From IMG/VR virus record IMGVR_UViG_3300026549_000895, positions 128,001 through 192,000 of that record: a DNA stretch of 64,000 nucleotides, one strand, 5' to 3'. The translations under genes and the position numbers were made by a program. The notes beneath the pieces were generated by a model. That model was given only the letters and a program-made list of their open reading frames with translations, was not told the origin of the DNA and did not search any database. Below, piece after piece: positions 5,358 through 49,360 of the stretch. Origin of the DNA: a virus (lineage: Duplodnaviria; Caudoviricetes). The first letter of the stretch is position 1. Every line of letters begins with the position of its first letter.

Positions 5358-6566
5358 ATGGATGAAGAGTCCAAATATTCTTATTCCACCGAAGAACTTG
5401 ATGCAATATTAAGAAAGATGGAAAAAGGAATCACACCAATAATTCCAGATGATATGATGAAAGAAGTTCTACTTCGTAAACGTGAATTGGAATTATTGAG
5501 AACAGGCGATGATGAAGACTTGGAAGAATATCTGTCCGAGGTCGAGAAACATAAAAAACTCACCAGAGCCCTGAAGGAACGAGAACACAAGGCAACAAAA
5601 ACAGAAGCGTATGTATATACAATGACTCCTGAACAATTAAAAGAAATCGAAGAGGATATGACAACCACCTTTGTTAGAGAGAATCCAAATTCCCCATATA
5701 ACAAATCTTCCTTTGATTCTGAAATGTCCGAAGAGAAGCGTGAGATATTAATTAAATTATCAAAGCTTCGCAATTGTTATTATAATCAGAAGGATTATCA
5801 GGAGGCTATTGAAACTATTCGAAAAGCAATTGAGATATCTTTGAAGACTGATTATCCTTGGCTTTCTCCAGAAGAAGCAATACGTAAATTCAAGAATAAA
5901 GAAATCGTATATTCTTTCGGAGCTCTTCCCAAGATATATCTCAATTATATCACACCAGTAACAGATCCGGAAATGGCTAAGAAGATAGCATCTGGAGAAA
6001 TTACTCTTGTTGATAAGAATGAGAATCGTCCCAAGAAGAGAAGAAGGAAGAGTAAAGAAGGAGTCACTGTCGAAGTTCGTCCTATTGGTAAACAAGAAAT
6101 TGAAGATGAACGTAAGATGTTCAATGCAGGATATGATTCCAGTATTGCACCTATGCTCAAGGGAAGTGTTAATGCATATGGTAGATTCGATATGCCAAAT
6201 TCTGGATATTTCCATGATGATATTGAATCTCCTTATGAGCAAGAAAAAGAAGATATGCTTAGTGATTTTGATTGGCTCCAAGAGGATGCTGCTGAGAAGT
6301 ATTATAATCTGCTCAATAATATCGATGATAAGATGACAGTATATGATCTTCTCAAGGATATTCAGAAAACTCGGAATATTGATATCAATCCAGCAGTTGG
6401 CAATAATATGACTGATTTCTTGAATTCATATAATCTTGGTCCATCTGAATATGACAATGTTGCATATTCTTCACATGGTTACGCAAGATCTATAATCCAA
6501 CCAAATCAAAAGGCTTTGGAGATAGAGGAGCAATTGTTGGAAAATATACGTAATTCCAATCCATAA
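5358..6566 (+). CDS. Hypothetical protein, 402 aa
   Basis: Long ORF, GAAAGGAG RBS, early-type motif at 5324-5335, followed by a terminator. Confidence 0.75.
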   Translation: MDEESKYSYSTEELDAILRKMEKGITPIIPDDMMKEVLLRKRELELLRTGDDEDLEEYLSEVEKHKKLTRALKEREHKATKTEAYVYTMTPEQLKEIEEDMTTTFVRENPNSPYNKSSFDSEMSEEKREILIKLSKLRNCYYNQKDYQEAIETIRKAIEISLKTDYPWLSPEEAIRKFKNKEIVYSFGALPKIYLNYITPVTDPEMAKKIASGEITLVDKNENRPKKRRRKSKEGVTVEVRPIGKQEIEDERKMFNAGYDSSIAPMLKGSVNAYGRFDMPNSGYFHDDIESPYEQEKEDMLSDFDWLQEDAAEKYYNLLNNIDDKMTVYDLLKDIQKTRNIDINPAVGNNMTDFLNSYNLGPSEYDNVAYSSHGYARSIIQPNQKALEIEEQLLENIRNSNP

Positions 6567-6583
6567 TTTCTATGCTATATGAG

Positions 6584-6613
6584 ATACCCCGGGAAACCGG
6601 GGTATTCTTTTTT
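6584..6613 (+). terminator. Rho-independent terminator
   Basis: ATACCCCGG-gaaa-CCGGGGTAT followed by a T-tract. Confidence 0.8.
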
Positions 6614-6634
6614 CCGGATTTTTTGAAATTTCAT

Positions 6635-6822
6635 ATGTATATTATTAATATGAATAAGAGATAAGAATCCCTTAATCAGAATCAGATTCAAGCCTCATAA
6701 GGCAAATATAAAATAATAGAATCTTTAGATGTCTGAGTAATATATCTTATCATCTTACGATATTATGGGTTATCCGAAACCCAATACAATTCGGGAATGA
6801 TGTTTACCAAGCATCAGAAAGG
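6635..6822 (+). ncRNA. Conserved structured leader/ncRNA, copy 1 (promoter motif, ~100-nt stem-bubble-stem, pseudoknot, hairpin)
   Basis: Core 6671-6745 closely matches 48796-48867. Pairings TAAGAGATAAG/CTTATCATCTTA, TCAGA/TCTGA, AGATTC/GAATCT, GCC/GGC. Confidence 0.6.
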
Positions 6823-6829
6823 TACATTT

Positions 6830-7165
6830 ATGACTAACGATTTCAGAACAATTATGGGTATTGAAGAAGAAAGCACACCCACAACAACAGAAACAAAAGA
6901 AGCTACAACCTTCCAGAAGGTTGTATACGTTGCAGCAGGCGTAGGCGTCATAGCCGGTGCAGCCCTCGTAACTATGAAGGCAGCAGACCACCTCACAGCT
7001 GAAGTTGTCGGCGGTGTAAAGGCTGCAAAGGCTTGGAAGGCTACAAGACCTACCAAGCTCGATAAGGAAGTCGCTGCACGCGATGCATTCGCCAAGAGCC
7101 TCAAGGACGCAGGCTGGGAAGATGATAAGATTCTCGAAGCTTGTGTAAACAAGTACGGTTTCTGA
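6830..7165 (+). CDS. Small predicted membrane protein (cassette 1 cargo)
   Basis: GAAAGG RBS before ATG 6830; hydrophobic VVYVAAGVGVIAGAALV segment. Confidence 0.75.
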   Translation: MTNDFRTIMGIEEESTPTTTETKEATTFQKVVYVAAGVGVIAGAALVTMKAADHLTAEVVGGVKAAKAWKATRPTKLDKEVAARDAFAKSLKDAGWEDDKILEACVNKYGF

Positions 7166-7174
7166 TCAAGAAAG

Positions 7175-7213
7175 GAAACCCCGCATATGCGGGGTTTCTT
7201 TTTTCTTCTTTTT
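7175..7213. terminator. Bidirectional terminator
   Basis: GAAACCCCG-catatg-CGGGGTTTC with T-tract on + and an A-rich 5' flank, between convergent genes. Confidence 0.85.
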
Positions 7214-14794: not shown

Positions 14795-17700
14795 TTAAGA
14801 ATTATATATTTCTTCTAATTGACGTTTAAGTTCTATCATTACTTTGTTAGCAGCGCCAATGAGAATTGGTGAAGCTATCATACGTCTCAAACAAGATGTC
14901 GATGAAACGAAAACAGATATCTCTTCATCAGGTCTTGTTTCAGAGAAAGGTTCAAGTCCCTCTGGAATAACTTCTGATATGATTTGCTTTGAAGCAGCAT
15001 ATACAGCAAGCTTATCTCCAACCGATGCTTCATCAGCATGCTCAATATATATTTCAATAAGAACATCTGTATTTATTCCGTTGATAGAATCTGTTTGCAT
15101 AGGTTCGGTTGGTCTTGTGTAAAGAGTATCCAACTTATATGGAGAAGCTGAAGAATCATGTTTGTCCAACATCTTTCTTCTCTTCTTGTTTTCTTTGAAA
15201 TGTTCGGAAAGTAATTCGAACAATGAAGGAGATAATTTATCCATTGCCTTTGTAGTATACATTCTTACATCAACAACAGTACCGGCATGCTTTGCCTTGA
15301 TTACTCTCTTGGCAGTATCAGCATTTATCTTATCAGAAGAGAACGCTTTAAGGAAAGCATCAACTGACTTATCACCAGTATCACCAAGTCCGAACAGTAC
15401 AAGAGGATCTCCAATCTCAACAACATCTCCAACCTTTACAACAGAATCGATTTGATCTGTCGCATTGATTTTTATTTGTTGACACATTGTCAGTGTTGTT
15501 CCAAGTCGTTTTGAAAATGCATGAGTTACAACACCGGCGTCTTCATATGTTGAATATGTATCAGTGAAAGCAACCTTTGCCATAGGACCAATGTTCTGAC
15601 GAACTACTCCATCCGATCCTTTGTGGAAGAACTTCTCATGGAATGCAAGTATGTCTCCTTCTTTGAAGCTATCACCAACTTCAAAAGTAGTTTTCAATTT
15701 GTTATTAACATAGAAGCCACTTCCTGAGTTGAATGAATACTTCGGAGATATCTGAATTGCTTTCTTAGTTTTGGATTTGTATTCAACAACGATGAACTGG
15801 TCGTTCATATCGATTACCTTGCCATCCTCATCTGCAACAACTGCAAATTCCTCTGATAAGTATGAAGGAACAATTTCATCAACGCCATTTGAAACAATAG
15901 CAGGTTCTGCATCTTCGGTTGAAATAATATGAGAAGACTGTGAACAAGCAATTGCAGTACGAATAGCATCATCTCTCGCAACAGTTCCAGGTGTTAACAA
16001 TTCAGAGAATGATGAAAGCTGAAGGTCTGTTTTCGGATCATCAGGAGAATATACACGAGTATATCCACGAATGGATTCGATATTAGGATCAACAACAAGC
16101 TGACGAGATACACCAACTTCTGCAGAGTTTGGAGTTGACATTGCAATCTTGGAAATCATTGTTTTATCAAATGATCTCTTTTGAACGGTGAATACTTTAC
16201 CACCGCCACCAGATTCATTAACACCTGCATATCCTTTCTTTGATATTGCTTCACGAGTATGAAGTTCAATAATAGGATTCAATGCAGATATAGGAGCAAC
16301 TGTTTCAACATTCATCAAATCATTTATTACACAATTGGCAGTCAAAGACAACTTGTTTCCTCTTGCCTTACTACCAGAAGTGTTATTATACTTTGATACA
16401 GCAACTGCGAGATTGTAATGCAGAATTGCAGGAATGATTTCAGTTGATCTGATTCTGTACAATGAAGCGTTTGTTTCATCAACGTGTTCATTATCACACA
16501 GAATATTCGAAGCATAAATCAACATACCAACCAAATCATTCGGTAAGTTATAATGATTACATACTTCATACGTGATTGGATCAACGAAGAATTTATAACG
16601 TGAAATGAAAGTTGTCAACTGAGAATATGTTGTGAAGAATAACTGGTCAAAGATATCAATGTATATCGAACTTTGATCCATAATCGGAACATCGAATTCA
16701 GCAACAGTATGACTCTTTGTAGGAAGCTTGTATAAGCCATTGAACAACAACTGATTTGACAATGTGTTCTTAACAGCCAATACCTTATCCTTGAATGGAA
16801 TCTTTATATATCCTAAATCATTAAATGACTTATCGACATATTTATGTTCAGCGCGTGTCTTATTCAGGAATTCAGTTATACCTTCCCATGCACAACAAGC
16901 AACACCAAGAGGAATCTTGATTCCAATAACTATTTCTGAATACATATGAACCTTTGTGGGTTTCTGCTTCATATATGCTTCACGTATTTCCTGAGGAAGA
17001 TTATCGAGAATAACTTCTGTCAATGTTTTGTTGTCTCTGGTAAGTCCAGATTCAGTATTTATAACAACAGGAACTTTGTTGACCATACCACAACAGAATT
17101 CATTATCAGCCACAGTGACGAATCCATATTTCTTAAAGCACTCATTCATGTTGAAATAAATTTCCATGTGAGTTTCTTTACATTTAATATACGACCATCT
17201 CTTGGCGAATTCATCAAACTCGATAGTTGTCATATATGAAGAATTCGCGTATGTGGATCCACCTGGCTTTACATATTTATTTACTCCATTGGCATCTGTT
17301 TCCTTATCAATCAACTTAACAAGCATGCCTACATCAACGAGTGATTTAGTATCATATCTATTGACAGAAATCTTGTTGTAGTTTGTTGTAAGAATAACCT
17401 TCTTCGGATTAACTTTCAGAATCGGAATCGGGAAATCTTGTTTACCAATGTTGAACCATTTACCACCCGAGAAGAACTCACCATTCTTAACTATCGGAAT
17501 TCGAACATTGATAACATTCTGAAGTCCAGATTGTTTTGATTTCAAAGTAACTTTCCAGTTCTTTACCAGTTCGGATATTGTTGATATATCAGAAACTTCG
17601 ATGTTGAGAACTTCAAATCCATCGGGAAGTTTCTCCAACTGATTGAATACCGCAACGATATCCTTATCCATCATTTCCTTCTCATATATACGAGAAGCAT

Positions 17701-19030
17701 TTGGGAATCCAGAACCACGTGCAACACCCTGATTGGTGGTTGATATGTTTCGAGGTCGTTGTGGTTCTGGCATTGGCATATCAGTTACATTTGATAATTT
17801 CTCAATATCATTCTTATCAAGTTTGATTTGAGACAAAGTGTTTCTCAAAGCAAGTTCACGCTTTGAAGATACAATATGTTTTGATTCTTCCTTTTCATCA
17901 GACTTGACAATGTTTGATAATATCTTACCTGCATCATCAAGATACTTCTTTGATACGTCATCTGTATCAGGAGTTTCCAAGTCAGATGAAATATGTTCAT
18001 AGTTATTAATGCTCTCTTTGATTTTTGTTGTGTTAATTCTGGACAACAGTTCAGCATTTATCTTCATTGATTTTGCATAATACAAAGTATCTTTCTTGAC
18101 TTCACCCTTTGGAACTCCATACTTAGAATGAAGAGCATTCAGAGTAGACTTAGTATTCTTTGAAACTGATTGAGCTTTATGTTGTAAATCAGAAACTTCT
18201 TCATCTCCAAGAGATTCCATTTCATCTTCAATAGAGATGTCTTTCTCAACAACTTCATCTTCAGCAGCTATGTCATCTCTTCTCTTAGTAACCTCAACAG
18301 TTCCTATTTCAGATAACAAAGTTTCAAATTGTGATTGTTCTTCTGATAAGTCATTGTTGAAATCAACCTTGTAATCAGTCCCCTTTGAAATAGAACGGAA
18401 TACAATTATGAGATTCATCTTCTTTGAAATACCTTCTGTACAACAAGCACTCAAGAATCCATTCAACACATCATCGCTGACTCTTTCGATATCATAATTC
18501 TTGAAGATGTCATATCTATCGACATCAACAACCATAATGTTCATCTTCTTGGGATCGGTCATGTTGAATACATTCATCATATTCCATACGATGTCTCGCA
18601 TGTTTGATATCAGTTTCTCATTATCTAACTTACTCTTCCTGAGATGATTTGTTACTTCCTGCATATAACCAGTCATTGATACATAAAGAGGATTTTTTGC
18701 TTTATCCAAATCTTCCTTCTTGGAGAACATAACAGGTTTTATTGGAGTAACAGATTTCAGATTATTCAAAACATAATCAACTCTACGATTGAATTCCTTT
18801 CCGCTTATTGAATAATTAACTCTCAATGTGGAATTGTTTATTGCAAGCGGAATATACAAATCCTTATAATTTATTCTACTTGGAGGAAGCATTGATTCTA
18901 CGAGTTTCATTTCATATTCAAATGAATTAGATACAAGGAAAACTCGTGTGTTAGAATCTTTATTGTCAGGCATACTTGTTATTGGATTCTTCACATAGTT
19001 TTTCAATCTTGTTATATCCATAAATTTCAA
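14795..19030 (-). CDS. Multisubunit RNA polymerase beta subunit, large N-terminal part (probably virion RNAP, phiKZ gp178-like)
   Basis: Beta motifs MSTPNSAEVGVSRQL, DDAIRTAIACSQSSH, TYEDAGVV, SVGDKL..SKQIISEV and CLRRM (equivalent to PSRM); lacks the beta C-terminus; late-type promoter at 19078-19090. Confidence 0.85.
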   Translation of the reverse strand: MKFMDITRLKNYVKNPITSMPDNKDSNTRVFLVSNSFEYEMKLVESMLPPSRINYKDLYIPLAINNSTLRVNYSISGKEFNRRVDYVLNNLKSVTPIKPVMFSKKEDLDKAKNPLYVSMTGYMQEVTNHLRKSKLDNEKLISNMRDIVWNMMNVFNMTDPKKMNIMVVDVDRYDIFKNYDIERVSDDVLNGFLSACCTEGISKKMNLIIVFRSISKGTDYKVDFNNDLSEEQSQFETLLSEIGTVEVTKRRDDIAAEDEVVEKDISIEDEMESLGDEEVSDLQHKAQSVSKNTKSTLNALHSKYGVPKGEVKKDTLYYAKSMKINAELLSRINTTKIKESINNYEHISSDLETPDTDDVSKKYLDDAGKILSNIVKSDEKEESKHIVSSKRELALRNTLSQIKLDKNDIEKLSNVTDMPMPEPQRPRNISTTNQGVARGSGFPNASRIYEKEMMDKDIVAVFNQLEKLPDGFEVLNIEVSDISTISELVKNWKVTLKSKQSGLQNVINVRIPIVKNGEFFSGGKWFNIGKQDFPIPILKVNPKKVILTTNYNKISVNRYDTKSLVDVGMLVKLIDKETDANGVNKYVKPGGSTYANSSYMTTIEFDEFAKRWSYIKCKETHMEIYFNMNECFKKYGFVTVADNEFCCGMVNKVPVVINTESGLTRDNKTLTEVILDNLPQEIREAYMKQKPTKVHMYSEIVIGIKIPLGVACCAWEGITEFLNKTRAEHKYVDKSFNDLGYIKIPFKDKVLAVKNTLSNQLLFNGLYKLPTKSHTVAEFDVPIMDQSSIYIDIFDQLFFTTYSQLTTFISRYKFFVDPITYEVCNHYNLPNDLVGMLIYASNILCDNEHVDETNASLYRIRSTEIIPAILHYNLAVAVSKYNNTSGSKARGNKLSLTANCVINDLMNVETVAPISALNPIIELHTREAISKKGYAGVNESGGGGKVFTVQKRSFDKTMISKIAMSTPNSAEVGVSRQLVVDPNIESIRGYTRVYSPDDPKTDLQLSSFSELLTPGTVARDDAIRTAIACSQSSHIISTEDAEPAIVSNGVDEIVPSYLSEEFAVVADEDGKVIDMNDQFIVVEYKSKTKKAIQISPKYSFNSGSGFYVNNKLKTTFEVGDSFKEGDILAFHEKFFHKGSDGVVRQNIGPMAKVAFTDTYSTYEDAGVVTHAFSKRLGTTLTMCQQIKINATDQIDSVVKVGDVVEIGDPLVLFGLGDTGDKSVDAFLKAFSSDKINADTAKRVIKAKHAGTVVDVRMYTTKAMDKLSPSLFELLSEHFKENKKRRKMLDKHDSSASPYKLDTLYTRPTEPMQTDSINGINTDVLIEIYIEHADEASVGDKLAVYAASKQIISEVIPEGLEPFSETRPDEEISVFVSSTSCLRRMIASPILIGAANKVMIELKRQLEEIYNS

Positions 19031-47591: not shown

Positions 47592-48680
47592 ATGACAAAC
47601 GAAATATCTATCAATTGGAACAAAAACCAACGTACGGAAAGACCGATCTTTGAAGCTTTTGATGAAGCCGCACTTGAAGATCTTCAATATGAAGCAATGG
47701 CTTTGTATGGAGAAGCTTGTTATATTGAGGATTCTATTCAGGATTATATTATGGAAGCTGCATCAGAAACAAAAGGGAATGAACCCGGCGTTCTTACAAG
47801 TGTTGGTCGATTGATCAAGAACTTAGTGGGTAGATTTATTCGTGCAATTACAAGATTCATGACTAATCATCAATGCAAAAAGGCTGTTGAATTTTTCAAT
47901 GATGCCAAAAACCGTTCTATGGTTAAAGACTATATAAAAGCTAACTGGAAACTTGAAAAAACCGATCCCGGTTACGCTTTCATGCAAGCGGTAGTTGTTA
48001 TGAAAGTATTATTGAAACATGTTAGCTCATATGAAAAGATTTTTAAAGCAAAAAATAAAGATGAACTTATAGCATCTTTGGGTGATAACCCATTTGGTGG
48101 TATCAACGACACGACATACTTCGCAGTTACAGATGTGACTCCTCAAAAGATAGGTACTTTTATTGATAAAATGTTTGGTGGAAATGGTATTTATGGTTCA
48201 GATAAAACATTAAATGACATTATTCATCAACTTGAAACTTTCAATACACGTTGGACACCTTATGATTCAAAAGATTCTCCGGTTGTAAAAATGATTACAA
48301 GCGACATAAAGGCTTTTGCTACATTCCAAAGCAGGTTACTAACGGCATATAAATTCTTTTCAACTGTTGAGAAGGATTCTGTTTTGAAAGGTCTTCATGA
48401 AAACAATAAAAAATTATCGGATATAAAAGATCAAGCTCATGAGATGAATGAAAAGGCTGACAAATCTGCGAATAAAACGGAAAAAGACATTCCGATTGAT
48501 TACAAAAAAATGATGTCAAATCATCTTGATGATACTAATAAATCGGTCAAAAATGTTCAAAAGAACATTCGTAATCAGGATGAAAAACGATATGCTGAAT
48601 TAAAACGACAGCAGGAAGAAGACAGACGAAAAGAAGAGGAAGAAGAAGCCAGACTCAGAAAAGAACTTGGAATAGATTAA
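47592..48680 (+). CDS. Putative head/internal virion protein
   Basis: Acidic N-terminal segment ending YIMEA; late-type motif CACG-N6-TAA at 47530-47542. Confidence 0.5.
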   Translation: MTNEISINWNKNQRTERPIFEAFDEAALEDLQYEAMALYGEACYIEDSIQDYIMEAASETKGNEPGVLTSVGRLIKNLVGRFIRAITRFMTNHQCKKAVEFFNDAKNRSMVKDYIKANWKLEKTDPGYAFMQAVVVMKVLLKHVSSYEKIFKAKNKDELIASLGDNPFGGINDTTYFAVTDVTPQKIGTFIDKMFGGNGIYGSDKTLNDIIHQLETFNTRWTPYDSKDSPVVKMITSDIKAFATFQSRLLTAYKFFSTVEKDSVLKGLHENNKKLSDIKDQAHEMNEKADKSANKTEKDIPIDYKKMMSNHLDDTNKSVKNVQKNIRNQDEKRYAELKRQQEEDRRKEEEEEARLRKELGID

Positions 48681-48684
48681 TTTG

Positions 48685-48709
48685 TATCCCCGGGTTTATC
48701 CCGGGGATA
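48685..48709 (+). terminator. Terminator hairpin
   Basis: TATCCCCGGG-tttat-CCCGGGGATA. Confidence 0.75.
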
Positions 48710-48756
48710 ATTTCTATGCTATGACAAAACAGGACTCGATTATTTTAACTTTTCAA

Positions 48757-48949
48757 ATATATATTATTAATATGATAAGAAGATAATAAATGTCTCTTAA
48801 TCAGAATCAGATTCAGCCTATATGGCAATTATAAAATATGAGAATCTTAGATGTCTGAGTAATATATGAATTATCTATCTTACACATCACAGCCCACCAG
48901 AAGCTGAGATTCTGGGTAGGATGCAAAAGCCAATGCATCTAAAGAAAGG
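48757..48949 (+). ncRNA. Conserved structured leader/ncRNA, copy 2
   Basis: Same core as 6671-6745; closing stem TAAGAAGATAA/TTATCTATCTTA; downstream pseudoknot and hairpin of different sequence but the same topology. Confidence 0.6.
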
Positions 48950-48956
48950 AAAATTT

Positions 48957-49313
48957 ATGGCTACCATGAAATTCAAACTCGACAAGCTTGAGCAGCGTTT
49001 CCAGGAAAGAAACATTGCAGTAGAAGGATGTGAGCTTGAAATAGAATTTGAACTCGCTGAACTGCCGGGAATAATCAAAGAAATCCCCACTGTAATTAAT
49101 TCAATTTCAGCAGCAGCCGAAAAGAGCAACTCCCGTGAATGGGAGAAAGTATGTAATGAAATAAACGAAGCTAATGACAAGCTTCGTGAGACAGAACGCA
49201 ATTTGCGCGGAGCCGAAGCGCGTGCTGAAGCTGCAGAGCGGAAAGCTCAGAGAAAGCAGGAAGAAGTTGAAGAACTTCGCAAGAAATGCTTCGGAACTCC
49301 TGCTGAAAAGTAA
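48957..49313 (+). CDS. Small coiled-coil protein (cassette 2 cargo)
   Basis: GAAAGGA RBS before ATG 48957; E/K/R/A-rich C-terminal coil. Confidence 0.7.
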   Translation: MATMKFKLDKLEQRFQERNIAVEGCELEIEFELAELPGIIKEIPTVINSISAAAEKSNSREWEKVCNEINEANDKLRETERNLRGAEARAEAAERKAQRKQEEVEELRKKCFGTPAEK

Positions 49314-49320
49314 GAAAGAT

Positions 49321-49360
49321 AAACCCCACCTTTCGGTGGGGTTTTCTTTTTTCTTTTTTA
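49321..49360. terminator. Bidirectional terminator
   Basis: AAACCCCACC-tttc-GGTGGGGTTT plus T-tract. Confidence 0.85.

Follow-up and report, generated by a model that had tools for sequence, protein, structure and literature searches.

Does one and the same RNA fold precede unrelated genes of an uncultured phage, and if it does, what could it do there? The question is raised by a stretch of 64,000 nucleotides of phage DNA (the window), which comprises bases 128001-192000 of the 239,830-bp IMG/VR virus record IMGVR_UViG_3300026549_000895. For two places in the window, 48890-48949 and 6766-6822, a preliminary description had noted a hairpin whose loop is complementary to the sequence behind it, then a second hairpin, and then the Shine-Dalgarno (SD) sequence of a small gene. 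The bases were found exactly as written there, and both copies pair as described. To our knowledge only a handful of phage and bacterial mRNAs have a leader structured as a pseudoknot through which translation or stability is affected. The motif reported here is a module on unrelated early genes in a little-known clade of gut and rumen AR9-like jumbo phages.

The phage genome, taken as the 239,830-bp record, has a G+C content of 36%. An ORF of 1410 aa in the window (14795-19030, minus strand) resembles the RNA polymerase (RNAP) beta subunits of Staphylococcus and Bacillus jumbo phages with 28-30% identity (best E 4e-104) and is, judged by this similarity, the beta subunit of a phiKZ/AR9-type multisubunit RNAP, which places the phage in that group. 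We infer that the source is an uncultured AR9/PBS1-like jumbo phage with a Bacillota-type host; the host, and hence its set of RNases, is presumed from SD usage and GC content.

Two cassettes with a common layout

The two loci in the window are small plus-strand islands of the same composition. An upstream gene and a terminator are followed by about 170 nt that the cassettes share, about 75 nt in which they differ, an ORF and a further terminator (Table 1). Both have an SD of the type AGAAAGG, 7-8 nt 5' of the ATG. The proteins flanking cassette 1 and those flanking cassette 2 are mutually unrelated. The cargo of copy 1 is a 111-aa ORF (6830-7165) with a hydrophobic stretch that is probably membrane-spanning, as read by inspection of a conserved hydrophobic block in alignment A3. 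Copy 2 carries a 118-aa coiled-coil ORF (48957-49313), for which homologues were found.

Table 1. Features of the two cassettes, in window coordinates. S1 and S2, pseudoknot stems; P3, SD-proximal hairpin.
Feature	Position	Strand	Detail	Basis
Terminator upstream of cassette 1	6583-6606	+		Terminator scan
Predicted AR9-type early promoter, cassette 1	6633-6652	+		11/13 match to AR9 box
5' rod domain, leader 1	6653-6760	+		84% identical to copy 2 rod; RNAalifold
Pseudoknot, copy 1	6766-6795	+	S1: 6766-71 with 6778-83. S2: loop 6773-77 with 6791-95, 4 Watson-Crick pairs and one G.U. L3: 6784-90	Sequence, covariation
Hairpin P3, copy 1	6798-6816	+	6798-6804 with 6810-16; directly abuts SD	Sequence
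SD and start codon, copy 1	6816-6832	+	SD 6816-22 (core 6817-22); ATG 6830-32	Sequence
Terminator after copy 1 cargo	7169-7204			Terminator scan
Intrinsic terminator of upstream gene, 5' border of cassette 2	48685-48709	+		Terminator scan
Predicted AR9-type virion-RNAP early promoter, cassette 2	48755-48774	+	13-nt AT-rich box, N6, G+1	13/13 consensus match
5' rod domain, leader 2	48775-48882	+	mRNA 5' end 48775-87 with 48870-82; inner helices include a covarying hairpin (RNAalifold)	RNAalifold, 7 copy-1 and copy-2 leaders (A5)
Pseudoknot stem S1 and 9-nt loop, copy 2	48890-48906	+	48890-93 with 48903-06, 4 bp; L1: 48894-96	Sequence, covariation
Pseudoknot stem S2, copy 2	48897-48915	+	Loop 48897-902 with 48910-15, 6 Watson-Crick bp; L3: 48907-09	Sequence, covariation
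SD-proximal hairpin P3, copy 2	48919-48940	+	48919-25 with 48934-40, 7 bp, G.U at base; loop 48926-33 with 5-nt conserved core 48929-33	Sequence, orthologue compensation
Extended SD and start codon, copy 2	48943-48959	+	SD 48943-50 (core 48944-49); ATG 48957-59	Sequence
Bidirectional terminator, 3' end of cassette 2	49321-49344			Terminator scan

A third copy outside the window

Behind one of about 20 genomic repeats of a motif from the shared upstream part of the leader, a third copy of the same topology was found on the minus strand at 673-764 of the genome, outside the window. It resembles copy 2 recognisably in loop, junction and SD context. Its cargo (L004:262-675 (-), i.e. 262-675 of the phage's own genome) is a protein of 138 aa that contains the C-terminal domain of the RNA polymerase alpha subunit (alpha-CTD; PF03118), so that three cargo proteins without relation to one another are served. 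When a covariance model built from the final alignment was run over the whole genome, it returned these three leaders only (E 7e-11, 1e-9 and 4.5e-8), the next match having an E of 2.2.

Among relatives the alpha-CTD protein is conserved with 68-86% identity, and it may act on the host RNAP as a decoy or adaptor made by the phage. In one relative of 191,884 bp the gene caller started this ORF at an ATG inside S1 (L037:10001-10066), giving 159 aa instead of 138, which is probably a mis-set start. The same relative has a gene for TnpB (OrfB_IS605/Cas12f-like) near the copy-3 locus (L037:14483-15703 (-)). A conserved 15-nt motif containing TATG lies 5' of the early promoter at 6563-6577 and 48707-48721 of the window and at about 1140(-) of the own genome; in cassette 1 the terminator follows it, whereas in cassette 2 and close to copy 3 the terminator precedes it. 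This motif may be a second promoter, for an RNAP other than the virion enzyme, or a processing signal.

Database searches

Scanning the whole window with Rfam at the gathering thresholds gave no match, and a permissive Rfam search (E<=10) of 48640-48990 and 6540-6870 returned noise only (HLE, snoRNAs), with no match of note to pistol, preQ1, SAM-II or frameshift elements at either locus. The leaders had no BLAST match among GenBank phages. In IMG/VR, exact leader words gave no match for one word and two unrelated-looking contigs for the other; the 16 matches to a pattern that linked the conserved junction with the SD were due to chance, none having a pseudoknot; and scans guided by the cargo or upstream proteins, singly or as alignments, gave no match. 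On the alignments described below, the element is a new covariation-backed RNA motif of about 60 nt that is absent from Rfam.

Chance, orthologues and covariation

A loose pseudoknot descriptor had 2971 matches in the 240-kb AT-rich genome, and the full descriptor of pseudoknot, hairpin and SD had 46, against 9-22 in Markov shuffles. Because the loose topology is so common by chance, two copies alone prove little, and the descriptor counts were not used as evidence. Homologues of each of the three cargo proteins occur in metagenome assemblies, and related contigs yielded 13 distinct orthologous leaders (7 of copy 3, 4 of copy 2 and 2 of copy 1). The early promoter and the entire module were kept in 13 of 13, and S1, S2 and the SD-adjacent hairpin were present in all 16 leaders when the three own copies were included.

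To score covariation, the 16 distinct leaders were aligned in a plain MAFFT run (A4), and three S1 and six S2 pairs were named as the pseudoknot. At these nine pairs 97.9% of the cells formed standard pairs, and double-sided changes were seen at six of them (27 cells). None of 500 column shuffles reached the observed pairing and covariation values, and slid controls, in which the 3' partner was moved by 1-3 columns, paired to only 14-61%. Taken separately, the three S1 core pairs were 93.8% paired and two of them covary. The complementarity between loop and downstream sequence, the lack of which in further copies would have refuted the preliminary description, was retained throughout the further copies: S2 was 100% paired in the 16 leaders, and four of its six pairs covary.

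The changes can be followed within each group of paralogues. S2 occurs in copy 2 and the copy-3 group in four variants that differ at three positions and are always compensated. S1 switches between C-G and U-A within the copy-2 group and again within the copy-3 group; the C-G of the own copy 2, for instance, is a compensated U-A in the orthologue L051. The copy-1 group has three versions of S1, of 4-6 bp. In P3, three consecutive stem pairs are swapped among the copy-2 orthologues with full compensation. On the MAFFT alignment the varying length of P3 leads to different registers, and the helices were therefore also parsed sequence by sequence. All three were then 100% paired with several pair types per position; as this parse maximises pairing, it is biased for percent paired, and only the diversity of pair types counts as evidence. 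By that measure S1 had 7 distinct variants, S2 had 7 and P3 had 11, all of them pairing.

G.U pairs were found at the first pair of S2 in two leaders and at the base pair of P3 in 11 of 16. They make the fold specific for the sense strand, and it is therefore a fold of the RNA. RNAalifold, which cannot draw pseudoknots, rendered S2 as a plain hairpin and gave the 5' strand of S1 another partner. This nested alternative helix was rejected, being broken (A.C) in exactly the two leaders in which the S1 C-G is compensated.

The dimensions are those of a small pseudoknot. S1 has 4-6 bp, and S2, with 5-7 bp, is directly stacked on it; L1 has 0-3 nt over the 5-7 bp of S2, and the loop lengths are sterically compatible with the stems that they cross. 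The A-rich L3 has 3-7 nt once S1 is limited to its geometrically allowed length, while the gap from S1 to the 3' strand of S2 is 1-7 nt in the parse, two rows of which extend S1 further only at the expense of L3. The length of L3 follows that of S1, in that an S1 of 4 bp goes with 3-4 nt and one of 5-6 bp with 6-7 nt, as the geometry of an H-type pseudoknot requires. P3 ends 0-4 nt before a strong, extended SD, and the SD lies outside all helices in 16 of 16 leaders. Among the unpaired positions almost none is invariant across the 16 leaders, and L1, L3 and the junction vary from one paralogue group to another. The 3-nt junction after S2 and the first base of P3 are conserved within the copy-2 and the copy-3 group; in copy 1 the junction is different.

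The element is an H-type RNA pseudoknot followed by a hairpin, with S1 and S2 independently supported. As far as substitutions among the leaders can tell, all three helices are shown to be under purifying selection for pairing. The selection on RNA structure that the preliminary description had suspected is thus strongly supported, since S1, S2 and the hairpin covary over a third paralogue and 13 orthologues. It had also called the copies conserved in structure and not in sequence, of which the first half stands and the second holds only in part: the copies can be aligned and have a mean column identity of 60%. One copy-1 orthologue (L058) even has the same six core S2 pairs as copy 2.

The conserved core of the copy-2 P3 loop (48929-48933), invariant in all copy-2 orthologues, is complementary to UGGCU at 48958-48962, which overlaps the start codon. 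A kissing contact between loop and start region could form here.

Early promoters and leaders

In AR9 the consensus of the early promoters, read by the virion RNAP, is a 13-nt AT-rich box followed by 6 nt and a G as +1 (PMC5312081). Copies 2 and 3 match it in 13 of 13 positions and copy 1 in 11 of 13, and a promoter motif of this type is repeated about 20 times in the genome. As placed by the promoter matches, the most likely starts of the leaders are G 48774, G 6652 and genome position 764(-), and the module is predicted to sit in the 5' leaders of early genes with virion-RNAP-type promoters. It is an optional middle piece, present in three of about 20 early leaders. Judged by eye, a helix at +1 or beside it opens at least nine clear early leaders, among them the three with the module. 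In the leaders of copies 1 and 2 this helix closes a rod of about 110 nt that runs from about +2, joining the 5' end to the segment before the pseudoknot. The inner hairpin covaries among the orthologues, and the rod may serve as a site for RNase III-type processing or as an additional regulatory domain. Copy 3 has a short 5'-terminal hairpin in place of the long rod, and its pseudoknot lies about 30 nt from the predicted 5' end.

Pseudoknot-like topologies near the SD were also seen in four other early leaders of the phage, at the genome positions 108636(-), 121336(-), 53127(-) and 39735(-) outside the window, among which are a family of palindromic 6-mers and a 158-nt leader with its SD in a hairpin loop. 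The covariance model scored these four near noise (E ~5). In PBS1, by our reading closely related to AR9, most early leaders measure 20-50 nt and the module is missing, which makes it a feature of this uncultured clade and not of AR9-like phages generally.

Two further candidates for a conserved leader function were rejected. An upstream ORF could begin at an ATG that some leaders have in S1, but copy 2, L057 and L058 lack this ATG, and a weak sigma70-type site (9/12) lies inside leader 1 only, with none on the same strand in leader 2. On the opposite strand, leader 2 contains a sigma70-like promoter match (48857-48828 (-), 10/12, with a perfect -10) that is absent from leader 1.

Proposed function and its alternatives

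Our preferred reading, to which we assign a probability of about 0.45, is that of a constitutively folded, cis-acting leader module by which selected early mRNAs would be protected against 5' decay and a strong SD would be presented. Among the functions that had been offered for the element, an exonuclease block or a translational enhancer appears the most plausible. RNase J1 of Bacillota is blocked by 5' ends that are base-paired and by ribosomes sitting on strong SDs, as in the hbs case (PMC3997798, PMC5737220). With a base-paired 5' end, the pseudoknot and P3, the leaders described here would offer no single-stranded entry for 5'-dependent decay by RNase J and RNase Y, and the module would form a compact mechanical stop ahead of the SD. 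Pyrimidine-rich segments of the leader would be held paired and the extended SD would stay free, while P3 possibly stacks on the SD/anti-SD helix. The outcome would be an early mRNA that persists for long and is efficiently initiated regardless of the coding sequence downstream.

That the module would be constitutive and not a switch follows from three observations, namely the SD that is always unpaired, the lack of consistent complementarity between S2 and the SD, and the unpaired positions that vary between groups. For copies 1 and 2 the duplex energies of the S2 3' strand with the SD region did not surpass those of shuffles, and some copy-3 leaders did so only mildly. An anti-SD switch was rejected on these energies and on the absence of a conserved alternative pairing, and the translational switch that had been offered as one option is accordingly disfavoured, the SD being unpaired in 16 of 16 leaders. 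Several points count against the preferred reading. The RNases that it involves are those of a presumed host. A generic stabiliser would be expected to be more widespread than three of about 20 early leaders, the others having a simple hairpin, and the group-conserved junction, the first P3 base and the copy-2 P3 loop core could be contacts of a factor.

Such contacts would fit a translational operator, the main rival and a rather unlikely though not far-fetched reading, in which a phage or host RNA-binding protein at the pseudoknot or hairpin shuts off the three early genes later in infection. The gene-specific distribution, the immediate neighbourhood of the SD and the conservation of post-S2 junction and P3 loop core within groups speak for it, and T4 provides precedents with gp32 on a leader pseudoknot and gp43 on a hairpin operator (PMC3014915). 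The helix sequences vary freely, however, and the junction of copy 1 differs from that of copies 2 and 3, so that a single sequence-specific reader is not obvious; the unrelated cargo proteins make autoregulation of the gene 32 type unlikely; and neither RNase III nor S1-domain proteins nor RegA were found in the phage genome, in a limited test of these three families in which the RegA control likewise matched nowhere. We consider it improbable that the leader contains an exonuclease-resistant RNA (xrRNA) in the strict sense, at which RNase J would stop after processing of the 5' rod and leave a defined, stable and translatable 5' end; this would be a stricter form of the preferred reading. 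Just as improbable is the wider proposal that the module is a portable, ~26-nt bacterial-virus counterpart of the xrRNAs of eukaryotic viruses, stopping RNase J a few nucleotides before it. In small plant-virus xrRNAs, too, a hairpin loop pairs with downstream sequence and L3 is A-rich, and this likeness favours the xrRNA, as does the long imperfect rod, a possible processing site, before the pseudoknot of copies 1 and 2. Copy 3, on the other hand, has its pseudoknot close to the predicted 5' end and no long rod, and the genome yielded no phage RNase III. An xrRNA is defined by a ring-like three-dimensional fold around the 5' end and a demonstrated exonuclease stop. If the xrRNA proposal is true, it would mark the first time that an RNA fold resistant to an exonuclease is described for RNase J.

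Several riboswitch classes are typified by small H-type pseudoknots that precede the SD, and this is the attraction of a ligand sensor with a pseudoknot aptamer. We hold such a riboswitch to be very improbable. No Rfam model matched at E<=10, the features of preQ1-I/II/III, SAM-II/V, fluoride and guanidine-III riboswitches were not found, and the SD is not embedded in the fold but lies outside the pseudoknot, always free, without a conserved alternative pairing. Moreover, L1 and L3 differ between the paralogue groups, which leaves no conserved pocket, and the cargo genes have no metabolic link. It is harder still to credit the module with no RNA function whatever, as a DNA-level recombination cassette resembling the PeSLs with chance complementarity. 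Its frame of terminator, early promoter and leader before unrelated ORFs is much like that of PeSLs (PMC2839356), and loose pseudoknot topologies are frequent by chance, but neither a DNA-level process nor chance explains compensatory changes in three helices over 16 leaders and strand-specific G.U pairs; the cassette idea may explain the spread of the terminator-promoter-leader frame. The smallest probability falls to a self-cleaving ribozyme of the pistol kind. Pistol has a 5' hairpin, an A-rich linker, a segment that pairs with the loop of this hairpin and then a further hairpin, an order of elements that the module recalls; pistol is also common in phage-rich Bacillota metagenomes. Membership in this class (RF02679) was rejected because the Rfam model had no match at E<=10 at either locus and the conserved core and the P2 helix, which would enclose the pseudoknot strand and P3, are missing, with no partner after P3. 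Invariant nucleotides are nearly absent from the unpaired positions of the 16 leaders, and the small ribozyme of the preliminary description is likewise disfavoured.

Should the proposed leader module stabilise or insulate messages in Bacillota, it would serve as a small and portable part for gene expression and as a test case for the stopping of RNase J by RNA folds.

Comparison with known systems

The closest described element is the pseudoknot in the leader of T4 gene 32. In T4, T2 and RB69 it is, like the one described here, of the H-type with two coaxial stems and lies in a phage 5' leader upstream of the ribosome binding site (PMC3014915). The gene 32 pseudoknot is bound by the product of its own gene and lies 67 nt before the start codon, with an unstructured A+U-rich tract behind it (PMC3014915), whereas here the hairpin P3 fills the interval to the SD and three unrelated genes are served. 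The cargo proteins match no known nucleic-acid-binding family except for the alpha-CTD-like product of copy 3. With unrelated cargo, of which only this one product looks nucleic-acid-binding, autoregulation is unlikely, and the features of a gene 32-type autoregulatory operator were not found.

With the 5' stabilisers of Bacillota, such as that of B. subtilis hbs, the leaders share a structured course, a paired 5' end and a strong SD (PMC5737220, PMC3997798). The SD is in both cases complementary to the 3' end of 16S rRNA. The stabilisers known to us in Bacillota are hairpins or bound ribosomes, and not a covarying pseudoknot. A 5' leader pseudoknot that promotes initiation, as is proposed here, occurs in the tisB +42 mRNA of E. 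coli (PMC7708055). There the ribosome binding site is sequestered, and the pseudoknot works together with a distant single-stranded standby site and protein S1 (PMC7708055); here, by contrast, the SD is open and lies 20-30 nt downstream of the pseudoknot.

In their layout the cassettes resemble the PeSL cassettes of T4-type phages, in which a terminator and a strong early promoter precede unrelated small ORFs (PMC2839356). Terminators and promoters flank both cassettes of the window in the same way, the promoter class being that of the virion RNAP and not sigma70. PeSLs have sigma70-type promoters and no leader pseudoknot; here a virion-RNAP promoter is combined with a pseudoknot. For AR9 itself, the authors of the promoter study noted a motif in early 5' UTRs that they left unexplained (PMC5312081).
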